Both the position numbers and the translations under genes were made by a program. A DNA stretch of 64,000 bases, taken from NCBI GenBank assembly GCA_018815765.1, contig JAHIWM010000102.1, positions 45,089 through 109,088 of the forward strand. Reading direction: 5' to 3'. This stretch comes from Gammaproteobacteria bacterium. Its GTDB lineage: Bacteria > Pseudomonadota > Gammaproteobacteria > Enterobacterales > Alteromonadaceae. Below, piece by piece: positions 31,210 through 62,230 of this stretch (the first letter of the stretch is position 1; each line of letters opens with the position of its first letter). The notes under the pieces are model-generated. The model did no database searches. It worked only from the letters and a program-made list of their open reading frames with translations, and was not told the origin of the DNA.

Positions 31210-31225
31210 TGGCATCAATTTTGCT
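31210..31225 (+). promoter_or_regulatory. sigma54 (-24/-12) promoter of the flgO-like operon
   Basis: TGGCAT-CAATT-TTGCT against consensus TGGCAC-N5-TTGCW. The GG-to-GC spacing is exact. It lies 48 nt upstream of GTG 31273. Confidence 0.7.
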
Positions 31226-31272
31226 GTATATCATGCATAGATAAATAAGCGACGGCTACGCCGGGGGCTACA

Positions 31273-31869
31273 GTGCGGATATTCGGGTTAGTCATTACAG
31301 TATTGCTGTTGTGCAGCTGCAGTTCTTTGCCACAAGGGCAAGATATTGCCGATCCTGTAAAGATCTCAAAAGCAGAACAACATCCTCCTTTGTTGTTTTA
31401 CACCGAGCGTCTGGCAGACCAGCTGTTTCATCAATTACAACCTCTGGAATTCGGTGCTATAGCTGTCACCACTTTTGCTGATGTGCAGCTGCTGGCTCCC
31501 GATACCAGTCGTAAGTCCAGCTATAACGCCTCCCTGCAGTTGCAGGAAAGTATGCAGACTGTGGCCACTCAGCTCGGTTATCAGGTCAGTGAAATACGCT
31601 TAAATGATGCTGTGCTGGTGCACCCAGGCTTTGAGAATTCCTTAGGCCGCGATTTAAGCCTGCTGGCGCAAAATCAACAGGCGCGTTATGTGATTACAGG
31701 GACCCTGACCGAAGGGGAAGTGCATATCACAGTGAATGCCAAATTAATTGACCTGAAAAGCCAGCAAGTACTTGCTGCGGCATCCAGTGTTATTCCAGTA
31801 GCTGTGTTATGGCCCAACGAGCAGTTGCAATTGCGCCATAATAAGTTGTATCGCAATTCGGAGTCTTAA
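31273..31869 (+). CDS. flgO: FlgO-family outer-membrane lipoprotein (paralog 1)
   Basis: 198 aa with a GTG start and lipobox-like LLCSC. Domain segment: IAVTTFADV...LQLQESMQTVATQLGYQVSE...YVITGTLTEGEVHITVNAKLIDLKSQQVLAAASSVIP. Its position next to the flg locus matches Vibrio flgO. Confidence 0.5.
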   Translation: MRIFGLVITVLLLCSCSSLPQGQDIADPVKISKAEQHPPLLFYTERLADQLFHQLQPLEFGAIAVTTFADVQLLAPDTSRKSSYNASLQLQESMQTVATQLGYQVSEIRLNDAVLVHPGFENSLGRDLSLLAQNQQARYVITGTLTEGEVHITVNAKLIDLKSQQVLAAASSVIPVAVLWPNEQLQLRHNKLYRNSES

Positions 31870-31872
31870 TTG

Positions 31873-32619
31873 ATGACTAGATATCGCCACCTTATTCTTT
31901 TATGCGGCATGACAACTCTGGCTTCTGTATCAGGTTGTACGCCTTTGATAGATACTGACTCCGAAGGTAAACCAGTGGCACCAGCGAATAAGGTGGAGCT
32001 GCAGCAAGGCCGTGTGACCTACAAAAAGGATGAGCCAGCAGTTCATCCGGATCAGCTGTATGTCAGTCAATATGACAGCGCCACCACTCAAAATGCCCGT
32101 ATGGCGGGGATGAATCCAACCAGCTATAAGCCTGAACCAGCCATTACAGTGAATCATTACGTCCAAAGTATGATGCATGACTTAGCTGCTAACCTTGAAG
32201 TGTTAAGCACAACCTTTAGTGTTGGTGTCACCAGCTTTGTTTATCTGGACGGTGATTATCAGCAAGGCGATTTGCTGGGTAATCAGTTATCTGAAGCTTT
32301 TATGCATGAGGCCACCCAGTTTGGTATGGCGGTCACAGATTTTAAAACCACAGATTATATCCGTGTAACACCCACAGGCGACTTTACTTTTAGCCGCGAT
32401 TTCCTTGAGCTGACCCAACAATACCCCATCAGTGTAGTGCTGGGGGGAACCTTAGTCCGCCATCAGGGCGGGGTAATGGTGAATGCGCGTATGGTGAACG
32501 TCAACGATAAAAAAGTGTTGGCGACAGCTCAGACCTTGATTCCACAAAACGTGGTACAGGCGCTAAAAGCGACACATAGCGCACCTTTGTTGCAGCTCAA
32601 AGCGGCTGGAACACCTTAA
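31873..32619 (+). CDS. FlgO-domain lipoprotein (paralog 2)
   Basis: Lipobox VSGC. The C-terminal domain VGVTSFVYLDGD...LGNQLSEAF...VVLGGTLVRHQGGVMVNARMVNVNDKKVLATAQTLIP is clearly paralogous to the genes on either side. Confidence 0.5.
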   Translation: MTRYRHLILLCGMTTLASVSGCTPLIDTDSEGKPVAPANKVELQQGRVTYKKDEPAVHPDQLYVSQYDSATTQNARMAGMNPTSYKPEPAITVNHYVQSMMHDLAANLEVLSTTFSVGVTSFVYLDGDYQQGDLLGNQLSEAFMHEATQFGMAVTDFKTTDYIRVTPTGDFTFSRDFLELTQQYPISVVLGGTLVRHQGGVMVNARMVNVNDKKVLATAQTLIPQNVVQALKATHSAPLLQLKAAGTP

Positions 32620-32641
32620 CAGGCTGAAACTGGATCTCTCT

Positions 32642-33961
32642 ATGAACTCACTGAATTCAACAATGACGTCAGCGTCAGCCAAAGTACTGTTAATAGTCGC
32701 AGCGCTATGGTTATCAGGTTGCGCTAGTTCAACAACCGAAAGTGCTGAAGCGCAAGTACAGGCAGAACAAACTGAACTTAGCGCTGAGGAACAACTGGCA
32801 CAACTGCAAACGCAAATGCAGGCGATGCAATCTGATTGGGAAAAACAAAAACCTGCGCTGGATCGTTTAGTCACCAATGAAGAAGATCTGCAGTTTTTAA
32901 TCAAAACGCTAAGCGATATGTCGCAAATTGATGACGCTCCTTCACGGTCTGCTTATCTGGGCAAAACGGAGATGACTGCGGAGCAACGTGAAGCGCTTTA
33001 TTCCATCACTCATGTGATCAACAACCAGCAGCAACTATTGGATATGGTGCAAAACCTGACCGATATCCTAAAAAATAATGCCGGAACAGTGAATACTGTA
33101 CAAAGTTCAACGACACAGAGTACACAAACTTTAGCGCCATCTGCAGCACCACAAGATGCACCTGTTGAAGTAAGCCGGGCTAATTATGAAGTCTCCGCAA
33201 ACTCCGAATTTAGCAGCAGTAGCAGCTCTTCAGCTGTAACGACGACTTCAACCACTTATTGTGAGTGTGAACCTTCCACGTCGCAGAATAGCTCTGTGGC
33301 GCAAGGCACAAGCAACAGGAACACAGAATGGTTTGGCTTAACTCAGCCCTATCAGGAAGCTGCTCCTGCTATGGGCATGGCACAAAACTCCCAGTTAGAC
33401 AGTAGCGCTGTAAACAATGGTCAACCTATTCCTGGCTTAGCGGTAAAACAATTTAGCCGCAGAACTTTACCTTCAGAGCTGGCGGCGGCCGGTGCGGATC
33501 TGCAGGCATATAATGCAGCGCCGATGTTCCAGCAAAGCCGTAAATCCTTAAGTGACTATGTTGCGCAGCTGGCATTTAAGTTGGCTGGTAACCAACAACT
33601 GCAAGGTGTGAAAGTTGGGGTAGCGAGTTTTGTATTTTTTGATTCTCAGCTTGAACAAACCAGTGCCGTAGGGAATCAGCTTGCAGAAGAGTTGAGCACA
33701 GTGCTGCCAGGTTATGGTGCTTCAGTGATTGAATACAAACTGACAAAAAATATTACTGTAGGTCCAACAGGTGATTTATCTTTATCCCGCAGTACCAGTA
33801 AGCTGCGCAACCCTCAGGGTATGGATTATATTTTAACTGGTACTATGGTTCCTACCCGCCGTGGTCTGCAAATCAATAGCAGGGTAGTGTCTACACAAAA
33901 TAATGTGGTGATAAGTTCTGCAACTACATTAATTCCTGCACTGGTATTACAACAGCTTTAA
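32642..33961 (+). CDS. FlgO-domain lipoprotein with coiled-coil and Ser/Thr-rich linker (paralog 3)
   Basis: 439 aa with lipobox LSGC. It has an N-terminal coiled coil, a low-complexity SSSSSSSAVTTTSTT stretch, and the C-terminal domain VGVASFVFFDSQ...VGNQLAEEL...YILTGTMVPTRRGLQINSRVVSTQNNVVISSATTLIP. Confidence 0.5.
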   Translation: MNSLNSTMTSASAKVLLIVAALWLSGCASSTTESAEAQVQAEQTELSAEEQLAQLQTQMQAMQSDWEKQKPALDRLVTNEEDLQFLIKTLSDMSQIDDAPSRSAYLGKTEMTAEQREALYSITHVINNQQQLLDMVQNLTDILKNNAGTVNTVQSSTTQSTQTLAPSAAPQDAPVEVSRANYEVSANSEFSSSSSSSAVTTTSTTYCECEPSTSQNSSVAQGTSNRNTEWFGLTQPYQEAAPAMGMAQNSQLDSSAVNNGQPIPGLAVKQFSRRTLPSELAAAGADLQAYNAAPMFQQSRKSLSDYVAQLAFKLAGNQQLQGVKVGVASFVFFDSQLEQTSAVGNQLAEELSTVLPGYGASVIEYKLTKNITVGPTGDLSLSRSTSKLRNPQGMDYILTGTMVPTRRGLQINSRVVSTQNNVVISSATTLIPALVLQQL

Positions 33962-33990
33962 ATCATTTTGTTTACTTCTGTACTTTCTGG

Positions 33991-34028
33991 TAAGGAATTA
34001 TAAATGATCTTTTATAATTCCTTATTTT
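33991..34028 (+). terminator. rho-independent terminator of the flgO-like operon
   Basis: TAAGGAATTATAAA-tgatct-TTTATAATTCCTTA forms a 14-bp perfect stem followed by TTTT. It begins 30 nt after the stop at 33961. Confidence 0.7.
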
Positions 34029-34292
34029 GGATTTTAACTATTTTGTACTATCCTTCTTTTGTTTCCTGATGCAAACGTTCCTGCTTTTTTACCTTCCTGC
34101 GCGTGAAAATATCCTGTTTGCGACCTGTTTTTAGAAGCTCTGGTGGTGTACAGTAGATTTTACTTAATTTCATAAATTTCAAAATCATCAAAAATATTTA
34201 CCGATTAAGTGAAAATAATTGCATTAAAAAATAGAAAAAACAAAAAAATTGAAATTTTTTGCATAAAAAAGTGAAAAATTAGAAAAATGTAA

Positions 34293-34319
34293 TAAAGTTT
34301 TAAGAGTGGCAGTCGATAC
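34293..34319 (+). promoter_or_regulatory. sigma28 (FliA)-type promoter of the DUF4402 fibre operon
   Basis: TAAAGTTT-N11-GTCGATAC against consensus TAAAGTTT-N11-GCCGATAA. The spacing is identical to the flagellin, flaG and flgM motifs in this window. It lies 80 nt upstream of ATG 34399. Confidence 0.6.
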
Positions 34320-34398
34320 ATTGATACGCTAAGGTTAAACTCAATTCGTTACCTGAGCGGGTTCATTGTAACTATTTGATCAATATAGGAAAGAGAAC

Positions 34399-35073
34399 AT
34401 GAATACTAATAATTTTTCTCGAAAAGCAGGTGTCGCGGTTGCTTTATCAGCAGCTCTGTTGTCTATGCAGGTATCTGCAGAAACAGCTTCAGCTGATATT
34501 TCTGTAACAGTAAATAACGCTATTACTTTCGTAAAGAACACCGATCTGAACTTTGGTGATGTTCGTGCAAGAGCGTCGTTACCTGCTGGCGAATGCAGCG
34601 GATTATACCTGCCTGCCAACCCAGCCTCACCACTACGTGTAGTAGATTTAGCGGGTGATACTGACCTGGTTAACACTGGTGGTACTGACGTTTGTACTGG
34701 AGAAGGTGATGCGGTCATGACATCTTTAGGAACAACTCCGGCTACCCGCGCTGGCTTTACTGTGAGTGGTGCTGCAACTTTTACCGACTTAACTATTACA
34801 ATTCCTGAAACAGTTACGCTGAACAATCCAAACCCAACTGCTCCTGACTTTGTTTTAACCTATATCCATGGTTACCGCACGTCGGCGCCAACGGGAGACG
34901 TTAGTTTTGCTATTGCTGCAACTGAAGGTGTGGCAACCGTAACTACTGATGGTACTGGTGGTTTCACCTTTAACTTAGGTGGCGCTTTAGTGACGCAGCC
35001 TGCCATTGCAACTACAGCTGTTTATGATGATACAACTTACACTGGTAGTATGATTGTCGAAGTCGCTTATTAA
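34399..35073 (+). CDS. secreted DUF4402-like fibre subunit (putative major subunit)
   Basis: 224 aa with signal peptide LLSMQVSA/ET. N-terminal alternating strand ADISVTVNNAITFVKNTDLNFGDV, middle AGFTVSGAATFTDLTITIPETVTL, and C-terminal YTGSMIVEVAY. The pattern matches my recollection of DUF4402 (SCPU/Csu-like). GGAAAGAG RBS. Confidence 0.6.
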   Translation: MNTNNFSRKAGVAVALSAALLSMQVSAETASADISVTVNNAITFVKNTDLNFGDVRARASLPAGECSGLYLPANPASPLRVVDLAGDTDLVNTGGTDVCTGEGDAVMTSLGTTPATRAGFTVSGAATFTDLTITIPETVTLNNPNPTAPDFVLTYIHGYRTSAPTGDVSFAIAATEGVATVTTDGTGGFTFNLGGALVTQPAIATTAVYDDTTYTGSMIVEVAY

Positions 35074-35093
35074 TTTATTTATATTGTAAGTGT

Positions 35094-35125
35094 AAAGGGA
35101 AGTTAAAATAACTTCCCTTTATTTT
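35094..35125 (+). terminator. intra-operon hairpin (attenuator-like) after the putative major subunit gene
   Basis: AAAGGGAAGTT-aaaat-AACTTCCCTTT forms an 11-bp perfect stem followed by ATTTT. It sits between the stop at 35073 and the next ATG at 35140. Confidence 0.55.
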
Positions 35126-35139
35126 AATCAGAGAATGCA

Positions 35140-35592
35140 ATGACTAAGATTGTACCATTTTTGTTATTGTGCTGGTCCTTTTGGACGGAAGCGGCGCTGG
35201 AAGAAGTGATTAAATTTCATTTTGGCGACATTGCTGTTACATCAACTGCTGTAGTGAGTACCGTCACAGTCCCCTTGTCCGGCCCATCCTGGTCGGATGG
35301 TGCTATCCATATTATCAAGCCAGGTCAGGCGGGTTTATACCGGTTAACTGAGTTTGTACCTTTCAGATACATCAATATTACACCTATGATGCCACAGGTA
35401 TCGGATCCGATAACCACCTCAGATGGCTTTGAGCTGGTTTCGGTGGATATGCCAAGTCAGTTAAGCACTGACAGTAATGGCACAGCTATGCTGCCAATAG
35501 GTGGGGTATTGCGCACCCGAACAACTACCGGTGAAGGTTATTTCAATACCACGTACCATATCTACTTAACTATTACTATTGAATACGAGTGA
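35140..35592 (+). CDS. secreted DUF4402-like minor subunit
   Basis: 150 aa with signal peptide LLCWSFWTEA/AL. IKFHFGDIAV parallels LNFGDV of the upstream gene. C-terminal YHIYLTITIEYE. Confidence 0.5.
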   Translation: MTKIVPFLLLCWSFWTEAALEEVIKFHFGDIAVTSTAVVSTVTVPLSGPSWSDGAIHIIKPGQAGLYRLTEFVPFRYINITPMMPQVSDPITTSDGFELVSVDMPSQLSTDSNGTAMLPIGGVLRTRTTTGEGYFNTTYHIYLTITIEYE

Positions 35593-35604
35593 GGTTTTAG
35601 ATTT

Positions 35605-36411
35605 ATGACTTCTGTATCCCGCATTTTTTTTGCTGCGTTTTTAGTGCTTTTATCTTTTCAAAGCTTCGCAAATTTACTGATTTCACCTACCAGAGTTGTT
35701 ATTGATACCAATGAAAAAACAATGCAGGTCGCATTGGTGAATGATTCAGATCGGCCGCAAACTTATCGATTAGAGTTTGAAAACAAAACCGTAAACGAGT
35801 ATGGCGCTTTTACAAAATTAGATGACAAATCAGTCGTAGGCTTTAATAGGGCTGATACTATGCTCAGAGTGTCTCCGCGTCAGGTGTCATTGCAACCCAG
35901 AGAAAAGCAAATCATTAAGTTGTCTTTAAGAAGGCCCCGAGGTTTGGCTGCGGAAGAGTTTCGCTCCTACCTAAAATTTGTCGCTATTCCACCTCCTGTG
36001 ATGTTAGCTGCGCCAGATCAGGCTCAGGCGACTCAACTTCGAATGTTAATGAGCTTTTCGATTCCTGTAGTAGTTAAAAACGGTGCGCCGAAATCTGAGG
36101 TGAAAATTACCAGTTTATCCAAAGATGCTATGGCAAAAGAGCAGCCTTTTATTGTGACTTTGGAGCGAGCTGGCAGCAGTTCTGTTTTTGGTAATTTGAA
36201 GTTATATACCCAACCTGATATTAACAATGGAAAGCCAGTCGCCTTACTAAATGAGGCTGCGTTTTATACAGATACAACACGCCGTACCTTTAAATTGATT
36301 TCTATGCCTGATACCAAGTTAAGCCCAAATGGCCTTTATAAATTGGTTATTGAAGGCGTGGACAAAGAAAAGGGCATAGTACTTGCTAGCAGGGAGATTA
36401 GTCTTAAATAA
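35605..36411 (+). CDS. PapD-like periplasmic fimbrial chaperone
   Basis: 268 aa with signal peptide LLSFQSFA/NL. LLISPTRVVIDTNEKTMQVALVNDSDRPQTYRLEF is the typical chaperone N-terminal strand pattern. Two Ig-like halves are apparent. Confidence 0.65.
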   Translation: MTSVSRIFFAAFLVLLSFQSFANLLISPTRVVIDTNEKTMQVALVNDSDRPQTYRLEFENKTVNEYGAFTKLDDKSVVGFNRADTMLRVSPRQVSLQPREKQIIKLSLRRPRGLAAEEFRSYLKFVAIPPPVMLAAPDQAQATQLRMLMSFSIPVVVKNGAPKSEVKITSLSKDAMAKEQPFIVTLERAGSSSVFGNLKLYTQPDINNGKPVALLNEAAFYTDTTRRTFKLISMPDTKLSPNGLYKLVIEGVDKEKGIVLASREISLK

Positions 36412-36431
36412 CATGATGTTTCCAGAGGGTT

Positions 36432-39400
36432 ATGCAAAACAAAAGGTCATTAAACCGCATCGCTATCAGTGTTGGGATAAGCCTTGGGTTATGGTGTGAT
36501 TTAGCTTTTTGGAATCAGGCATGGGCGGCGGCAAATGTCGATCAAGCTCGTACATCTGCCGCGCAAAACAAAAATATTTTTAGCCTAATTAAAAAACTGC
36601 GTCAAAACTATGGCGCAACCGAACAAATCCCTTTGTCTGCAGATGGGAATCCAGGCAACTCTGTAAATGCCTCTTCCTCTGTTGTATCACAATCTGCTGT
36701 TGTCGGAAGCCGCTTTGCCGAAGGTGAAGAAATCATTTTTGACGTTTCTTTGCAAGGCTATAAATTATCTGAACTTTACGCTATTAAATCAGCTACTGGT
36801 TACAGAGTGGGTTTTGCTAATCTTTTAGAAATTCTCGATTTACCTATTAATTTCTCTTTGGAGCAAAGTTCTGCCAATGGCTGGTTTTTGCGGGAAGACA
36901 ATTTGGTGAGTCTTGATTTTTCTACTCTAGATCAGCTAAAAGCAGTGATTGGTGGCAAGACAATTCTGCTCAGCGCTGACGACTACGAACTTGCGGCTGA
37001 TGATATCTACATTGAACTGGCCGAAGTCAGTCGATGGTTTAATTTAACATCACAAGTAAACGAAGAATACCTCAAGCTTGATTTGAGTACAAAAGACAAG
37101 CTTCCTGTGATAACCAGATTTGAGCGCCAGAACAGAAAACAAGTTGTAGCAGCCTATGGCTCTGAATCTGTTTTACCTGCTACCGGAATAAGCTATACAC
37201 CTTACTCGGCACCGCTGGTTGATATGCAGTTTGGGGTTTCGCATAGCAGTATTTCTAATAATGCTGCGTATGCTGTTAGTTCGAATCAGGATTTAGCGTA
37301 CTTTAATAGTGAGCTATTTGTCAGTGGCAATACTGAAGAGACTGTACAGTCAGTGCGTTTTAGCTTGAATAAAGAGTCTGCAGAAGGCGATTTACTACCA
37401 CTCATTCCGGTAACACGGCTTGATGTGGGCGATGTGTCTCCCTACAGCATTGGCAGCGCTTCAAGCGGGTTGAGCCGTGGCGTGAGCATCAGTAATACAC
37501 CACTGAACCAGTTGTATGACAATCGTAGAGTCACTATTGCAGGTCAGGTTCCTGTTGGATGGGATGTTGAGGTGTACCGAAACGGTGTATTGATCGATAG
37601 AGCTATTGCAGTTAGTGAAGGACGATACGAGTTTCTCGATATTGAGCTGTATTTTGGAAAAAATGAATTTGAGATTGTGCTCTATGGTCCTCAAGGTCAG
37701 GTTGAAACTCGCAATGAAAATTATGTGATTGATCGAAATGAAGTTTTAGCTGGGCAATCTTTTTATAATGTATCTGTTGTTGAGTTAAACCGCTCCTTAT
37801 TCGATTTTTTGTTTGATGACAGGCAACCGAACACAGGTTGGTTGTCCAGCTTTGTGTTTAATCAGGGGGTTACAGATTGGCTGGCTTTTAAAGCTGGATT
37901 CTCGAGTTTCGATTCCGATATCGAAGAATCTCAGCAGAGTGCTGTAGTCGGTGTGAACTTGAATTTGGCTCAACTTGCTTTATTGAATTCCTCTATTCGG
38001 GTCGAAAAAGATGAACGTACTACAGTAGACTCAAGCCTCAGAACTGAATTAGGTTCAACGGACTGGAGCTTTACTTATGGTAAAACTACAGAAGATGATC
38101 CGCTGTTAAAAAATCGCGACTCGGAACGTTATGGGGTTGGTTTTCGCGGTGGAATATTTGGATTTGTTAATTACGCTAATTCGTATTCTGTTGATACCTA
38201 TGGTGACGGTAATGAAACGGTCACTGCGAGTAATGCCACCAGTTTGAGTTCTTCTTTAGGGGCAATATCTAATTCGTTAATTTATCAAAAGGTAAAAGAC
38301 CCATACGCTTTTGATGAGTTAAGAGATGCTTTGGCTGAGGACGATATCCCTTTTGACGAGAATGGCAATCCTGATGAAAATCTGGATTTAAATAATCCGT
38401 TGATACGCTCTGAGCGGCAGTCAACACGAGGAGTGTTAAGTTATGCCAGACGCTTTGGGTCAGTGTTAACTCGTTTTAGTAGCGCATACCAACTCCAGCC
38501 AGAGCGTGAAACAATTTCATATTCAGCCAGTACTAATATTCCGATCTCCGAGGGTATTACCACAGATTTACGTTTTTCATATTTCCCTCAGTTTGGCAGA
38601 CGTCAATATGGTATGGGGTTGTCATGGCGATATAGCGATTTTATTTTTAGCGCCTTTGGTAATTACACCGATTCAAATAGTTATCAGATTGGTTTGTCAA
38701 CACGACTGAGTTTTGGTGCTGGATCCAAAGCTGAAAATTACGCGTTATCTGGCAAACAAGTGGGGCCTTACGGTGGGGCTGTAGTGAAAGTTTATGAAGA
38801 CAAAAATCTGAATCAGCAACATGACTATGGTGAGCCCCTGATCAAAAATGCCAGAGTGAAGGCGGTACAGGCTAACACTGAGGCTAGCACTGGTAGCGAA
38901 GGTTATGCTGTGTTGTCAGGCATAGTATCAAATACTAAAACCGATATTGTGGTGGACAGGTCAAGTCTGGAAGATGACCGTATGGTATCCACTATCCCGG
39001 GTTTCTCTATTAGTTCACGCAAAGGCTTTTGGGAACCTCTGGAATTGCCTGTCAGCCGTACTGCCGAGATCGAAGGTAAAGTGTACTTTTATGATGAAAA
39101 TGAAGTGCAGCAGCCAGCCACTTACGTAGGGGTACATTTGATCAACAAAGCCGGTGAGACGGTCAATACCACTCAGACGGAATACGATGGCTATTACTTA
39201 TTTACTGACGTATTGCCAGGCTTTTACAGAGTAGAGATAGATAAACGATCGTCACGCCGTAAATCATTAAGAGATACCGATCCGCTGGTTTTTGCCGTGC
39301 GGGGTGGGGTAGATATTCTGGATGGCACCACTATTGTAATGCAGCAGGCGCAACTGGAGCCCGGTTATGCCGTCACTATGGGCCGGTTTAACTCAGCTGT

Positions 39401-39602
39401 GCTGTTAAAAACTTACTGGAGTCTGGTATCTAAAACTGGCATGAACGTTGCAAAATTGAAACCGTTCTATATTCAAAATGACGGTAAACATCACTTATAC
39501 GCCGGCTTCTATAAAGATAAAACAACGGCAGACGAGTTATGTAACAGGCTGGCTAAGCGCGGATTCTCGTGCTCTGTCAAAGAGTTCGAATTTAAGCTCT
39601 AA
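36432..39602 (+). CDS. usher-like outer-membrane assembly protein with C-terminal CarboxypepD_reg-like and SPOR domains
   Basis: 1056 aa with signal peptide AWA/AA. Usher-like N-terminus EIIFDVSLQGYKLSELYAIKSATGYRVGFANLLEILDLPI. Plug-like RRVTIAGQVPVGWDVEVYRNGVLIDRAIAVSEGRYEFLDIELYFGKNEFEIVLYGPQGQ. It then has a long beta-rich region, a GKVYFYDEN...DGYYLFTDVLPGFYRVEI segment, and the SPOR-like tail YAVTMGRFNSAVLLKTYW...HHLYAGFYKDKTTADELCNRLAKRGFSCSV. Confidence 0.5.
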   Translation: MQNKRSLNRIAISVGISLGLWCDLAFWNQAWAAANVDQARTSAAQNKNIFSLIKKLRQNYGATEQIPLSADGNPGNSVNASSSVVSQSAVVGSRFAEGEEIIFDVSLQGYKLSELYAIKSATGYRVGFANLLEILDLPINFSLEQSSANGWFLREDNLVSLDFSTLDQLKAVIGGKTILLSADDYELAADDIYIELAEVSRWFNLTSQVNEEYLKLDLSTKDKLPVITRFERQNRKQVVAAYGSESVLPATGISYTPYSAPLVDMQFGVSHSSISNNAAYAVSSNQDLAYFNSELFVSGNTEETVQSVRFSLNKESAEGDLLPLIPVTRLDVGDVSPYSIGSASSGLSRGVSISNTPLNQLYDNRRVTIAGQVPVGWDVEVYRNGVLIDRAIAVSEGRYEFLDIELYFGKNEFEIVLYGPQGQVETRNENYVIDRNEVLAGQSFYNVSVVELNRSLFDFLFDDRQPNTGWLSSFVFNQGVTDWLAFKAGFSSFDSDIEESQQSAVVGVNLNLAQLALLNSSIRVEKDERTTVDSSLRTELGSTDWSFTYGKTTEDDPLLKNRDSERYGVGFRGGIFGFVNYANSYSVDTYGDGNETVTASNATSLSSSLGAISNSLIYQKVKDPYAFDELRDALAEDDIPFDENGNPDENLDLNNPLIRSERQSTRGVLSYARRFGSVLTRFSSAYQLQPERETISYSASTNIPISEGITTDLRFSYFPQFGRRQYGMGLSWRYSDFIFSAFGNYTDSNSYQIGLSTRLSFGAGSKAENYALSGKQVGPYGGAVVKVYEDKNLNQQHDYGEPLIKNARVKAVQANTEASTGSEGYAVLSGIVSNTKTDIVVDRSSLEDDRMVSTIPGFSISSRKGFWEPLELPVSRTAEIEGKVYFYDENEVQQPATYVGVHLINKAGETVNTTQTEYDGYYLFTDVLPGFYRVEIDKRSSRRKSLRDTDPLVFAVRGGVDILDGTTIVMQQAQLEPGYAVTMGRFNSAVLLKTYWSLVSKTGMNVAKLKPFYIQNDGKHHLYAGFYKDKTTADELCNRLAKRGFSCSVKEFEFKL

Positions 39603-39606
39603 CTGG

Positions 39607-40443
39607 ATGGTATCAAGAATGAATTTTACTCTAAAGTACGGCTTGGGCTTTTGTCTTGCCTCCTCCTTGTTCGGTTGTTCATCAGCTCCGGCTGTAACAG
39701 AGGACAATCAATCAGTCGCAGTAAATGCGGAGATGGAAGAGTGGCGCAAACTAAAACCCGGTGTTCAGCGTTTAATTGCTATGGAATCTGATTTAAAACA
39801 GCTGATTATCCAATTAGACGAATTTGCCAAAGCTACAGATCCTGATTACCAGTCAGATATTGCGCCACAGCATAAAAATACGCAGGTCGATGTTTTGGAC
39901 AAAAATGTTTTCAAAGAAACAGTGGTAACGCCAACACCAGCTGAGCCTGAGCCTGTAACGCCTGTGCTGGCGCAAACTGTGGTCAGTGCAGAAAAATCTG
40001 AAGCTAAAGTTCAGCAGATTGTTGCTGCAACTCAGGCTGAGCCATCAGTTGCCAGAGTTGATCACACTCCGGCAGTTGCTCTGACTGCGCAGCCAACACC
40101 AGAAGTTAAGCCTGAGGTCGAAGCAGTTGTGGAAGAGGTTTCTCCGGTTACAGAAACAGTAAAAGTGCAGCAACGTTACGCTTTACAGCTTGCATCCGTA
40201 GTCAATCCGAATCAATTGGTCAGTACCTGGACCCAGATACAGCGCAGACACAGTTCAATACTCTCAGGAATGGAGCCGCTGTATGAGAAATTTCAGAAAG
40301 GAAAAACCACCTTTTATCGCCTGAAAGCTATGGGCACATTGACTGTAGCCGATGCCCGTAGCGCATGCAGCAGTATTGTAGGGCAGGGCGGCCAGTGTTT
40401 TATCGGTAGCAACAGTGGTGTGAAGAGCGTCACTGAGTTATAA
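39607..40443 (+). CDS. SPOR-domain lipoprotein
   Basis: Lipobox LFGC, with start at ATG 39607 or 39619. It has an N-terminal helical motif, a Pro/Glu/Val-rich linker, and C-terminal SPOR domain YALQLASVVNPNQLVSTW...TTFYRLKAMGTLTVADARSACSSIVGQGGQCFI. The ORF-track start at 39478 overlaps the previous gene. Confidence 0.6.
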   Translation: MVSRMNFTLKYGLGFCLASSLFGCSSAPAVTEDNQSVAVNAEMEEWRKLKPGVQRLIAMESDLKQLIIQLDEFAKATDPDYQSDIAPQHKNTQVDVLDKNVFKETVVTPTPAEPEPVTPVLAQTVVSAEKSEAKVQQIVAATQAEPSVARVDHTPAVALTAQPTPEVKPEVEAVVEEVSPVTETVKVQQRYALQLASVVNPNQLVSTWTQIQRRHSSILSGMEPLYEKFQKGKTTFYRLKAMGTLTVADARSACSSIVGQGGQCFIGSNSGVKSVTEL

Positions 40444-40477: not shown

Positions 40478-40506
40478 AAAAAGAGCCTTTATGGCTCTTT
40501 TTTTTG
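40478..40506 (+). terminator. rho-independent terminator of the fibre operon
   Basis: AAAAGAGCC-tttat-GGCTCTTTT followed by a T-run, about 35 nt after the stop at 40443. Confidence 0.7.
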
Positions 40507-41974: not shown

Positions 41975-41990
41975 AGCAAAAGCTATGCCT
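41975..41990 (-). promoter_or_regulatory. sigma54 promoter of flgT
   Basis: The minus strand reads AGGCAT-AGCTT-TTGCT with exact GG/GC spacing, about 35 nt upstream of ATG 41940. Confidence 0.6.
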
Positions 41991-42607: not shown

Positions 42608-43042
42608 TCAGGCTTTGATCCCTGGGCCTTTATCCACCTGAGCGGCTTTACCTTTATTGGTGTAGGTTAAACCAGCACGGCCACGGCTTTGCAACAGTTC
42701 TGTTTTAAAACGTTCAATAACTAGCTGGCTTTGTTCCACGCTTTGGCTGTTCACCTGATTTTGAAACTTACACTGTGCCAGCTTATCTTCCAGCCGTTGT
42801 AAGTGTTCTTTAAACCAATCTTGCAACTTAGCTTCGCCAAGCTCTGGTGATGCGGTCAGTTGCTCGTCTGTGGCCTGAACTAAATCAAGGGTTTGAATTT
42901 TTTCATCAGTATTAGTTTTTAGTGCTTCAACATCACGGGTCCGGATGGCGTCCAGTTCCTTATGAAGCAACAAAAGCAGCACATCCAGGTGCTGCTCTTG
43001 CTCATTTAACAGGGTGAGGATAGAAGAGTGGGCGCTACTCAT
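42608..43042 (-). CDS. flgN: flagellar export chaperone FlgN
   Basis: 144 aa, helical. LLNEQEQHLDVLLLLLHKELDAIRTRD matches the FlgN pattern. There is a 4-nt overlap with flgM upstream. Confidence 0.75.
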   Translation of the reverse strand: MSSAHSSILTLLNEQEQHLDVLLLLLHKELDAIRTRDVEALKTNTDEKIQTLDLVQATDEQLTASPELGEAKLQDWFKEHLQRLEDKLAQCKFQNQVNSQSVEQSQLVIERFKTELLQSRGRAGLTYTNKGKAAQVDKGPGIKA

Positions 43043-43380
43043 TTTTTACTAAAAAACTCGCCTTCAAACTGTACGATACGACGTGCCAGTTGTTCTACGT
43101 TCACTTTGTATTTGCCTTCGGAAATCTCTTGTTTGATCTTATCCACTTTCTCTTGATCAATACCTGAGCTGGCTTTCGCTTTTTCCTGGGCTTTGCTGAA
43201 TTGCTGTGCCTGAGAAGTCAGCGATACTGAATCCTGTTTCTGTGCAGCCGTGCCTGTAGTGGTCTGCTGCTGGACAGCCTGTTGCTGTGCAACCTGCTGT
43301 TTCTGAACATTTTGTTGTTCTACTTTGTCAGCTTTCACTTGTTGAGTGACAGGCTGACCTGTGTTCACATTAATCGCCAT
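43039..43380 (-). CDS. flgM: anti-sigma-28 factor FlgM
   Basis: 113 aa with a Q-rich disordered N-terminus. C-terminal IDQEKVDKIKQEISEGKYKVNVEQLARRIV is the sigma28-binding helix region. Confidence 0.85.
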   Translation of the reverse strand: MAINVNTGQPVTQQVKADKVEQQNVQKQQVAQQQAVQQQTTTGTAAQKQDSVSLTSQAQQFSKAQEKAKASSGIDQEKVDKIKQEISEGKYKVNVEQLARRIVQFEGEFFSKK

Positions 43381-43421: not shown

Positions 43422-43448
43422 ATAACGGCAGCACCTAATAAAACTTTA
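43422..43448 (-). promoter_or_regulatory. sigma28-type promoter of flgMN
   Basis: The minus strand reads TAAAGTTT-N11-GCCGTTAT, 41 nt upstream of the flgM ATG, in the flgA-flgM spacer. Confidence 0.55.
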
Positions 43449-49640: not shown

Positions 49641-49656
49641 TGGCATCAGTCTTGCT
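49641..49656 (+). promoter_or_regulatory. sigma54 promoter of flgFGHIJ
   Basis: TGGCAT-CAGTC-TTGCT with exact spacing, 33 nt upstream of ATG 49689. Confidence 0.65.
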
Positions 49657-57401: not shown

Positions 57402-58967
57402 ATGATAGGGAAATTTATGCTCCTGAACGAGCTGCAGAACTACGATAATTCTTATTTAAATGAAAAAAGCTGGCCTATTGTAGATTTTTATAACTGGGAT
57501 GAGCAGAGCTTTGAGCCACTTCCTGTTGAGCAAAAAATTGAGTTATTACTCACTTTTAACCCATTATCCGCCCCAGTCAAACTATGGTATTGGATGCAAT
57601 GGAATTTAGTTGCACCTGAAAAGGTTGATAAAACGGATTTCTACAATCTTTTCGGAGATTTGCCGCTAAGTCAAAAATACATGGTATACAGCCAGTTAGT
57701 TAGAGCTGGTTTTGTTGGTAAGTCTCAGGGCATTGATACTTATCCTTTATTTGTCATGATTTTCGATGAGTTTGCTCTTGCTCGCAATGCTATTGGACAG
57801 GTAGCCCATTTAACAGCTGATGCGAATGAAGATGTTGTATTTGTGCTAACGAATCTGTTTGTCGGTTCGTCTCACGGTCCAACGTTGACTACTCTAAATT
57901 ATGCTAGTGCATTGCGACGAATGGGGAAACACCCAATCGTTATATCTACGACCTGCGTACCTAAAGTGGCTATGTATAAATATCCGCTTCCAGCTCCCGT
58001 GTTTTTTGGCAATGTCAGAGAAGAATATTTCAAAAATAATACGTTATTCAACATTGATCACAGAACCGAGACCGAATTAGCCGGTAGGGTTATGGTTGAA
58101 TGTTGGGGCGAACAATTCGATTTCGTTCAGTTGGCTCCCATGGATGATCCTGCACATTTACAAGAGCTGATCCAATTAGTTAACAGTCTCAACCCTCGTT
58201 ATATTCTTGGGGTTGGTGCTATGAATCCTGTGCTTGAGTTGATAGCCGCAGCGCGACCTGTATTAAATATCCCTTGCGTCACATCTCTGGTGACTACCCC
58301 ACATTCGGTTCCTGTATTACACAGAGAACTGACACAGAGTGATGAGCTGCGTCTTCAGCATATTGACTATAAAAAGCCAGTGTTAATTAGCCGCTTACCT
58401 TTCAGGTTGAGAGAGAATAAAGGTCTTCGCACTAGCTCAATAGAGGATCGTGCTTTAAATTTCGTTGTCGTAGGGCATCGATTGGAGCAGGAAATTAAAG
58501 CTGATTTCATTCAGACTTTAGTGACGTTAAAGACAATGTTCTCACAAGCTGCATTTGTATTTATTGGCCCTGACAACTTGCCTGCATTGCCAGCTATGAT
58601 TCAACAATGTAGCTATTTCACCGGCATGGTCAGCAACGCTATCGAGTTAATTGGCACCTGTCACTTTATGTTGAATCCAAGACGCCAAGGAGGAGGAACG
58701 TCCGCAATAGAAGCTATGAGTTTAGGCATTCCAGTCTTAACCGAACCTTTCGGAGATGTTTATCAGTATATTGGTGATGCTTTTGTTTGTTGTAATGATG
58801 ACGAACGCGTTGAGTTTATTCGCACCTATTTAAATGAATCTGAATGTCGTAGTTTTTACGATGAGCACTGCCGTGCTGTCTATGACGCTGCTACTGATAC
58901 AGCCAGCCTGCTTCAGCATTTATTACTTGATTTTGATCAGTACATTTATCAGCATTTTGCCGTCTGA
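57402..58967 (+). CDS. GT-B-fold glycosyltransferase-like protein (GT41/FlmG-like C-terminus), candidate flagellin glycosyltransferase
   Basis: 521 aa, beginning 15 nt after flgL. The C-terminal half has LNFVVVGHRLEQE...FIGPDN... and NPRRQGGGTSAIEAMSLGIPVLTEPFGD, resembling the donor-binding half of GT-B enzymes. The N-terminal roughly 300 aa are unassigned. Confidence 0.5.
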   Translation: MIGKFMLLNELQNYDNSYLNEKSWPIVDFYNWDEQSFEPLPVEQKIELLLTFNPLSAPVKLWYWMQWNLVAPEKVDKTDFYNLFGDLPLSQKYMVYSQLVRAGFVGKSQGIDTYPLFVMIFDEFALARNAIGQVAHLTADANEDVVFVLTNLFVGSSHGPTLTTLNYASALRRMGKHPIVISTTCVPKVAMYKYPLPAPVFFGNVREEYFKNNTLFNIDHRTETELAGRVMVECWGEQFDFVQLAPMDDPAHLQELIQLVNSLNPRYILGVGAMNPVLELIAAARPVLNIPCVTSLVTTPHSVPVLHRELTQSDELRLQHIDYKKPVLISRLPFRLRENKGLRTSSIEDRALNFVVVGHRLEQEIKADFIQTLVTLKTMFSQAAFVFIGPDNLPALPAMIQQCSYFTGMVSNAIELIGTCHFMLNPRRQGGGTSAIEAMSLGIPVLTEPFGDVYQYIGDAFVCCNDDERVEFIRTYLNESECRSFYDEHCRAVYDAATDTASLLQHLLLDFDQYIYQHFAV

Positions 58968-58979
58968 GCCTTCCTGAAA

Positions 58980-59020
58980 TCTAAGCATATTTATCTGAAT
59001 TAGATTTGCTTAGAATTTTT
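58980..59020 (+). terminator. hairpin plus T-run after the glycosyltransferase-like gene
   Basis: TCTAAGCA...TGCTTAGA forms the stem, with an inner ATCT/AGAT pairing, followed by ATTTTT. Confidence 0.35.
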
Positions 59021-59031
59021 CTAAAAAATAT

Positions 59032-59058
59032 TAAACTTTTTTTCTTCAGTGCCGATAC
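59032..59058 (+). promoter_or_regulatory. sigma28-type promoter (distal) of flagellin 1
   Basis: TAAACTTT-N11-GCCGATAC. Confidence 0.55.
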
Positions 59059-59124: not shown

Positions 59125-59151
59125 TAAAGAAATTCCGCTCTTGTCCGATAC
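59125..59151 (+). promoter_or_regulatory. sigma28-type promoter (proximal) of flagellin 1
   Basis: TAAAGAAA-N11-TCCGATAC, 68 nt upstream of ATG 59219. Confidence 0.55.
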
Positions 59152-60046: not shown

Positions 60047-60218
60047 TAGTCAGTACGGCACTTTATTGAAATAAATCGAACGAGGCTGGCAGAACAGATC
60101 TGCGAGCCCCTGACAATCAACTTTATGACGCTTGCTGGTTCAGGCAATACATACCGGCCGTCAAAGGAAAAGAGGAAAAGCTTTATGGCTATATATACAC
60201 TAACCGGAGGATGACACC

Positions 60219-61227: not shown

Positions 61228-61254
61228 TAAAGTCCTGAAGTTAGTTGCCGATAC
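61228..61254 (+). promoter_or_regulatory. sigma28-type promoter of flagellin 3
   Basis: TAAAGTCC-N11-GCCGATAC, about 100 nt upstream of ATG 61356. Confidence 0.65.
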
Positions 61255-62190: not shown

Positions 62191-62222
62191 GGCGGGGACT
62201 TATTAAAGTCTTCGCCAGTTTT
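62191..62222 (+). terminator. hairpin plus U-run after flagellin 3 (overlaps the flaG promoter motif)
   Basis: GGCGGGGACTT-atta-AAGTCTTCGCC forms an 11-bp stem with two G.U pairs, followed by AGTTTT. Confidence 0.45.
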
Positions 62223-62230
62223 GCCGATAA
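62204..62230 (+). promoter_or_regulatory. sigma28-type motif upstream of flaG
   Basis: TAAAGTCT-N11-GCCGATAA has a perfect -10 element. That element ends only 8 nt before ATG 62239 and 14 nt before ATG 62245. Confidence 0.5.

Follow-up and report, generated by a model that had tools for sequence, protein, structure and literature searches.

A putative flagellar sigma-28 promoter in front of the major-subunit gene of an uncharacterised pilus in Rheinheimera

The stretch of DNA analysed here (64,000 nucleotides, referred to as the window) comes from a Rheinheimera bacterium and carries, within a cluster of flagellar genes, five co-directional genes of an uncharacterised fibre operon (Table 1). 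The first gene encodes a secreted protein with a signal peptide and no Pfam hit, the presumed major fibre subunit, and is followed by genes for a second, DUF4402-like subunit, a PapD-like periplasmic chaperone, a large outer-membrane protein with SdrD_B, CarboxypepD_reg and C-terminal SPOR domains, and a SPOR-domain lipoprotein. The operon is flanked upstream by three FlgO-domain paralogues and downstream by flgT, a FlgP-like gene, flgN, flgM and flgA. Pfam also identifies three flagellins, FlaG, CheV and FlgK in the window.

Table 1. Coordinates of the features of the fibre locus and of the motifs used for comparison (positions in the window).
Feature	Position	Strand	Remarks
Sigma-54-like motif (31210-25) and three FlgO-domain paralogues	31210-33961	+	Upstream context
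Intrinsic terminator hairpin and U-rich tail of the three-gene flgO-paralogue operon	33986-34031	+	-17.1 kcal/mol, z -4.77, 0 of 200 shuffles as stable; stem conserved in L005, L006, L007 and L010
A/T-rich A-tract region resembling an UP element	34220-34292	+	UP-element function inferred
-35 element TAAAGTTT	34293-34300	+	Identical to the sigma-28 consensus
-10 element GTCGATAC	34312-34319	+	Consensus GCCGATAA; follows an 11-nt spacer
Predicted transcription start	34326-34328	+	Inferred
Predicted 5'-terminal stem-loop of the mRNA (ACGCUAAGGU...ACCUGAGCG)	34326-34359	+	Role in mRNA stabilisation inferred
Rest of the leader	34360-34398	+	Ribosome-binding site AGGAAAGAG at 34387-34395
Major fibre subunit	34399-35073	+	224 aa; signal peptide; DUF4402-like
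Intrinsic-terminator-like hairpin (14-bp stem) plus U-tract	35092-35130	+	Centroid energy -17.1 kcal/mol, z -3.7; probably an attenuator
Second subunit, DUF4402	35140-35592	+	150 aa; PF14352, E 9.9e-5, just below the gathering score
PapD-like chaperone	35605-36411	+	268 aa; PF00345 PapD_N, 26.0 bits against a gathering score of 23
Outer-membrane usher (predicted fold) with C-terminal SPOR domain	36432-39602	+	1056 aa
SPOR-domain lipoprotein	39619-40443	+	274 aa; start at MNFTL..LFGC chosen by comparison with the 275-aa orthologues
Bidirectional terminator between the operon and the convergent flgT gene	40478-40502
Sigma-54-like motif in front of flgT	41990	-
flgM	43039-43380
Sigma-28 motif in front of flgM, between flgA and flgM	43422-43448	-	Conserved in L005, L007 and L013
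Distal sigma-28 motif in front of flagellin 1	59032-59058	+
Proximal, weaker sigma-28 motif in front of flagellin 1	59125-59151	+
Sigma-28 motif in front of flagellin 3	61228-61254	+
Sigma-28 motif in front of flaG	62204-62230	+

The identification of these genes as a fibre operon, proposed in the first-pass annotation, is correct. An AlphaFold2 model of the 1056-aa protein, built from a 54-sequence alignment, has a mean pLDDT of 83 and matches the ushers FimD (3rfz_B, Foldseek E 4.5e-27) and PapC (7lhg_C, E 3.5e-23) over about 950 columns. However, neither the Pfam Usher model nor a PDB sequence search detects it, and the chaperone likewise has no PDB match by sequence. This is therefore a very divergent chaperone-usher system, with the usher fused to a peptidoglycan-binding SPOR domain. 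The subunits have only weak, indirect DUF4402 hits. The major subunit has only eight homologues in a collection of 5.8 billion proteins, one of which hits PF14352, and the second subunit shows weak C-terminal similarity to it. A conserved N-terminal motif of alternating residues (VTVNNAITF) and an invariant C-terminal Tyr in the major subunit are suggestive only. The AlphaFold2 model of this subunit, from an 8-sequence alignment, is of low confidence (pLDDT 62) and gave no Foldseek match with E <= 0.001, the pilins CfaB and CooA appearing only at E about 0.1.

Upstream of the major-subunit gene the sequence reads TAAAGTTT-TAAGAGTGGCA-GTCGATAC, leaving 79 nt between the end of the -10 octamer and the ATG. 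Compared with the sigma-28 consensus TAAAGTTT-n11-GCCGATAA (PMC2859248) it matches 14 of 16 positions with the exact spacer, the two mismatches being C to T at position 2 of the -10 octamer and A to C at its last position. Such sites are rare. Allowing two or fewer mismatches, the window holds four sites on both strands, against 0.06 expected from 100 dinucleotide shuffles, none of which had four, and the other three precede flgM, flagellin 1 and flaG. With three or fewer mismatches there are eight sites against 0.77 expected. The five comparator motifs listed by the first-pass annotation in front of late flagellar genes are all present, and Pfam confirms the identities of these genes.

The conservation of the motif was the main test. 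The usher family has 71 homologues, all annotated as hypothetical, 'sporulation protein' or 'carboxypeptidase-regulatory-like', from Rheinheimera, Bowmanella, Lacimicrobium, Thalassomonas, Pseudoalteromonas, Ningiella, Glaciecola and metagenomes. A scan of GTDB genomes returned only 4 distant loci, and the window's own species and its close relatives were reached through exact-protein look-ups. In total, 15 distinct loci (individually designated L001, L002 and so on) were examined: Rheinheimera (five close loci including the window, sp. D18 and a MAG), three Cellvibrionaceae MAGs, Thalassomonas haliotis, Bowmanella denitrificans, Pseudoalteromonas distincta, Glaciecola sp. MH2013 and Ningiella sp. 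W23. The most distant usher-like homologue examined (P0075, in L017) sits in a tol-pal neighbourhood without a chaperone or subunits and is not part of this system. In 15 of 15 loci, across two gammaproteobacterial orders, a sigma-28-type motif with an 11-nt spacer lies on the coding strand 50-136 nt before the ATG of the major-subunit gene. The -35 element is TAAAG, TAAAC, TCAAG, CTAAG or TAATG, while the -10 element has the form G[T/C]CGA[T/C]A, with an invariant CGA core. Against a null of 2,914 windows of 200 nt, which is conservative because it still contains genuine sites, the best upstream score has an empirical probability of 0.003-0.16 per locus, and across at least eight independent lineages the joint probability is negligible.

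Three features argue that selection acts on the promoter itself. Among the close orthologues, the A/T-rich DNA upstream of the -35 element is full of indels, while the -35 element, the -10 element and the leader are kept. The motif persists where the module is not in a flagellar cluster, as in Bowmanella, Thalassomonas, Pseudoalteromonas and Cellvibrionaceae. Interestingly, in Glaciecola and Ningiella the gene order is rearranged to usher, subunit 2, chaperone, major subunit, and the motif has moved with the major-subunit gene, sitting immediately before this last gene. An A6-8TAT tract abuts the -35 element in fibre promoters of several genera and in the flagellin-1 promoter of the window.

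The fibre and flagellar motifs were then used to recover one another. A weight matrix trained only on fibre sites from other loci ranks the window's fibre site first at 24.4 bits, and its next four hits in 128 kb of scanned strand are flagellin 1, flaG, flgM and flagellin 3. Conversely, a matrix trained only on the window's flagellar sites plus the consensus gives the fibre site 20.8 bits, fifth in the window behind its four training sites, and picks the fibre promoter as the best or near-best hit in most other loci. However, the -35 element deviates in several loci (CTAAG, TAATG, TCAAG), and two loci score poorly with the flagellar matrix (L013 at 5.2 bits and L016 at 9.6 bits). Furthermore, the T at position 2 of the octamer breaks the GC extended -10 described for sigma-28 (PMC12784957). 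GT is found in ten of the 15 fibre loci and GC in five, whereas T at this position occurs in none of the five flagellar sites of the window (the proximal flagellin-1 site has TC). Recognition may therefore be weaker or modulated.

With regard to ALTERNATIVES in the intergenic region, no sigma-70-like and no sigma-54-like site was detected in the 437 nt between 33962 and 34398. The TGGCAG in the spacer is not a sigma-54 element, since its GG is not conserved in the orthologues and the downstream TTGC is absent. The terminator of the upstream flgO operon, which had been the reason given in the first-pass annotation for an independent promoter, is real and conserved in the orthologous loci. Sigma-54-like motifs do precede flgO1, flgT and rod genes and are conserved in the orthologues, although one upstream of flagellin 2 was looked for and not convincingly found. 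This arrangement fits the Vibrio-type hierarchy, in which flgO and flgT are class III genes, and flagellins and flgM are class IV genes gated by FlgM secretion (PMC6504787).

The anatomy of the transcript can be inferred. In the P. aeruginosa fliC open complex the octamer spans -15 to -8 (PMC12784957), which places +1 at about 34327. A conserved (T)ACGC motif lies there, 5-8 nt after the octamer, in the 12 loci where the subunit gene comes first, and in 10 of these 12 it opens a hairpin starting within 1-3 nt of the predicted 5' end, with different stem sequences in different genera, which looks like an mRNA-stabilising stem-loop. The rest of the leader is nearly invariant among the 5 close orthologues, and the motif GATCAA..ATAGGAA recurs in the Rheinheimera MAG L004 and the Cellvibrionaceae loci L001 and L002. 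An Rfam scan of 33900-34500 at E <= 10 gave only noise (microRNA and snoRNA models on the terminator hairpin) and nothing for the leader. The hairpin that directly follows the major-subunit gene contains G+C, is conserved in 5 orthologues and is separated by only about 10 nt from the next ATG. A comparable hairpin follows the major-subunit gene in most of the loci folded, but a run of U after it is weak or absent in L004 and L012. The most economical reading is that sigma-28 drives abundant monocistronic pilin mRNA, with a fraction reading through into the genes for the minor subunit, chaperone, usher and SPOR lipoprotein. This refines the earlier proposal that the fibre genes as a whole are late flagellar genes. 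The hairpin means that the assembly genes might not be under effective sigma-28 control.

Taken by comparison rather than by experiment, the evidence supports, with good confidence, a functional sigma-28 (FliA)-dependent promoter of class IV in the Vibrio-type four-tier hierarchy, belonging to a Rheinheimera polar-flagellar regulon, although dependence on FliA and FlgM is inferred without transcript, mutant or in vitro data and fliA itself lies outside the window. In this view, RNA polymerase carrying sigma-28 would be freed when the anti-sigma factor FlgM, encoded 9 kb away, is exported through the finished hook-basal body. The fibre subunit would therefore be made together with flagellin, in cells that have just completed a flagellum.

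Other explanations are less likely. The motif may be conserved but contribute little, with the operon expressed mainly by read-through from the sigma-54-driven flgO operon or from an unrecognised sigma-70 promoter. Indeed, the flgO terminator stem is A/T-rich, with only two G-C pairs, and was not listed by a consensus terminator scan, a sigma-54-like site precedes flgO1, and the very A/T-rich region at 34160-34290 could hide weak -10-like hexamers. However, the hairpin is stable, has a U-tail and is conserved, no sigma-70 or sigma-54 match lies in the intergenic region, and the motif is kept in Bowmanella, Thalassomonas, Pseudoalteromonas, Glaciecola and the Cellvibrionaceae loci, where the gene upstream of the major-subunit gene is not a flgO paralogue. 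It is similarly doubtful, but cannot be excluded, that the promoter is read by a different sigma factor with sigma-28-like specificity, such as a second FliA paralogue or a factor dedicated to the fibre, in which case expression would not be gated by FlgM export. The T at position 2 and the downstream ACGC motif, features of the fibre sites absent from most of the window's flagellar sites, favour this possibility, whereas the reciprocal recovery by the two matrices and the lack of a sigma-factor gene in or beside the module in any locus examined speak against it.

Still less probable is that the main product is a regulatory RNA, the conserved 72-nt leader acting as a sigma-28-dependent small RNA derived from the 5' UTR or as a binding platform. 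The leader at 34330-34385 is more conserved than the promoter among close orthologues, and sigma-28-dependent small RNAs derived from UTRs exist in E. coli (PMC10578931). Nevertheless, no terminator lies between the promoter and the ATG, no Rfam family matches and, apart from the 5' hairpin and the region around the ribosome-binding site, the leader is not conserved between genera. A chance occurrence, conceivable because the region and half of the motif are A/T-rich, is effectively refuted by the conservation data.

Class 3 (E. coli, Salmonella) and class IV (Vibrio cholerae) sigma-28 promoters of flagellin, flgM, tar and aer share the bipartite architecture and the CGA core, lie in front of a gene for a highly expressed filament subunit and are expected to be controlled through FlgM export. 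Here the gene driven is a chaperone-usher fibre subunit rather than a flagellar or chemotaxis gene, the -10 element has GT instead of GC, and the ACGC start region and 5' hairpin are specific to the fibre promoters. The nearest precedent found for sigma-28 positively controlling an adhesin is the V. cholerae flagellum-regulated haemagglutinin FrhA, a large secreted adhesin whose control is indirect, with sigma-28 acting on the diguanylate cyclase CdgD, which acts on FrhA (PMC6504787). The Fim and Pap pili of E. coli share with this system the FimD/PapC usher fold and a PapD-like chaperone, but the present usher carries a C-terminal SPOR domain and the subunits are DUF4402-like. The archaic (sigma-clade) Csu and CupE pili are also small operons of two or more short subunits, a chaperone and an usher, found in environmental gammaproteobacteria, but neither subunit here gave a Pfam hit to the SCPU (spore coat protein U) family at E <= 0.01. 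No report of a chaperone-usher operon carrying a sigma-28 promoter, of DUF4402 fibres or of SPOR-fused ushers was found, although the literature searched was incomplete. Cultured strains likely to carry the locus exist, such as relatives of Rheinheimera tangshanensis and R. mangrovi, Rheinheimera sp. D18, Pseudoalteromonas distincta, Thalassomonas haliotis and Bowmanella denitrificans.

A more speculative and, on present evidence, unlikely possibility is that the DUF4402 pilus with its SPOR-fused usher is an organelle coupled to the flagellum, its major subunit being a conserved member of the sigma-28 late regulon across Alteromonadales and Cellvibrionales, so that the fibre is made only after hook-basal-body completion. 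The SPOR domains of the usher and the partner lipoprotein would bind septal or denuded peptidoglycan and so place the fibre at the new, flagellated pole. The FlgO-domain and FlgT-like paralogues found beside the operon in several loci, even outside flagellar clusters, would then be parts of the fibre's envelope apparatus rather than, or as well as, parts of the flagellar H-ring. The result would be a pilus for landing or surface sensing built into the motile cell type.

An entire, uncharacterised family of chaperone-usher fibres appears to be wired directly into the last tier of the flagellar hierarchy, and this wiring has been kept across many genera of aquatic gammaproteobacteria. If confirmed, a new class of structural genes joins the sigma-28 regulon, a function-agnostic handle becomes available for studying an unannotated pilus family with DUF4402 subunits and a SPOR-fused usher, and motile cells of these bacteria would be pre-armed with an adhesive or sensory fibre.

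The fibre structural genes are hypervariable between nearly identical genomes. When the window is compared with two orthologous loci (L005 and L007), PtsP is 99% identical, ThyA 97%, the FlgO paralogues 90-96% and FlgT 94-97%. In contrast, identity at the amino-acid level falls to 69-71% for subunit 1, 61-69% for subunit 2, 66-69% for the chaperone and 75% for the usher, while the promoter and leader stay almost invariant. This pattern suggests diversifying selection or allele exchange at a surface structure.

Coordinates of the features described in the text (L, homologous or distant loci)
Source	Coordinates	Strand	Feature
Window	34399-39602		Fibre structural genes compared with L005 and L007
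Window	34281-34292		A6-8TAT tract abutting the -35 element of the fibre promoter
Window	59020-59031		A6-8TAT tract abutting the -35 element of the flagellin-1 distal promoter
Window	34360-34398		Rest of the leader, with the conserved motif around the ribosome-binding site
Window	31210-31225	+	Sigma-54-type motif before flgO1
Window	41975-41990	-	Sigma-54-type motif before flgT
Window	39437-39452	+	Sigma-54-type motif inside the 3' end of the usher gene
Window	49641-49656	+	Sigma-54-type motif before a rod gene
Window	60047-60218		No sigma-28 motif upstream of flagellin 2
Window	57402-58967		Group-1 glycosyltransferase gene
Window	36432-39602		Usher with C-terminal SPOR domain
Window	39619-40443		SPOR lipoprotein
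Window	31273-33961		Region beside the pilus operon with flagellar H-ring domains
L012	13823-17975		Region beside the pilus operon with flagellar H-ring domains
L013	13964-15204		Region beside the pilus operon with flagellar H-ring domains
L004	6948-8825		Region beside the pilus operon with flagellar H-ring domains
L003	16068-17351		Region beside the pilus operon with flagellar H-ring domains
L017	8001-11417		Distant homologue of the usher-like protein

An A6-8TAT tract directly abuts the -35 element, both in fibre promoters of several genera (homologous loci L001, L002, L004 and L011) and in the window's flagellin-1 distal promoter, resembling a proximal UP-element subsite. Downstream, a GATCAA(N)TTATAGGAA motif around the ribosome-binding site is conserved across genera (leaders of the window, L004, L001, L002 and L013), and GGA motifs occur in the hairpin loops of some leaders. 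It is possible that this motif is a binding site for a translational regulator such as CsrA.

Motifs of the sigma-54 type (TGGCAT-N5-TTGC) lie before flgO1, flgT and a rod gene, and another is found inside the 3' end of the usher gene, 180 nt before the SPOR-lipoprotein gene. The sites before flgO1 and flgT and the one inside the usher gene are conserved in L005 and L007, a comparison that does not extend to the rod-gene site because L007 ends before the rod genes. The internal site could be a separate promoter for the last gene of the operon. Alternatively, its conservation could simply reflect that of the coding sequence. Among the three flagellin genes, flagellin 2 is the only one with no sigma-28 motif upstream, and no convincing sigma-54 motif was seen there either. 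It may be regulated differently, as flaA is in V. cholerae. A gene for a 521-aa group-1 glycosyltransferase sits between the hook-associated protein genes and the flagellins and may act in flagellin glycosylation.

The usher carries a C-terminal SPOR (septal peptidoglycan-binding) domain. Across the 15 related loci, at least one SPOR-domain protein, separate or as the fusion, accompanies the operon where the flanks were annotated, although L016 shows none in the precomputed Pfam hits, and in the more distant homologues the usher often lacks the fusion. This hints at anchoring at the pole or division site. A distant homologue of the usher-like protein (26% identity, in locus L017) lies in a tol-pal/TolB neighbourhood with no chaperone or subunit genes. 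Therefore, the barrel family extends beyond pilus operons.

Two to four FlgO-domain paralogues lie beside the pilus operon. In the Bowmanella locus no flagellar gene lies within 10 kb, and in a Cellvibrionaceae MAG (L003) a FlgT_M-like gene lies immediately downstream. These "flagellar H-ring" domains may therefore also serve the fibre apparatus.
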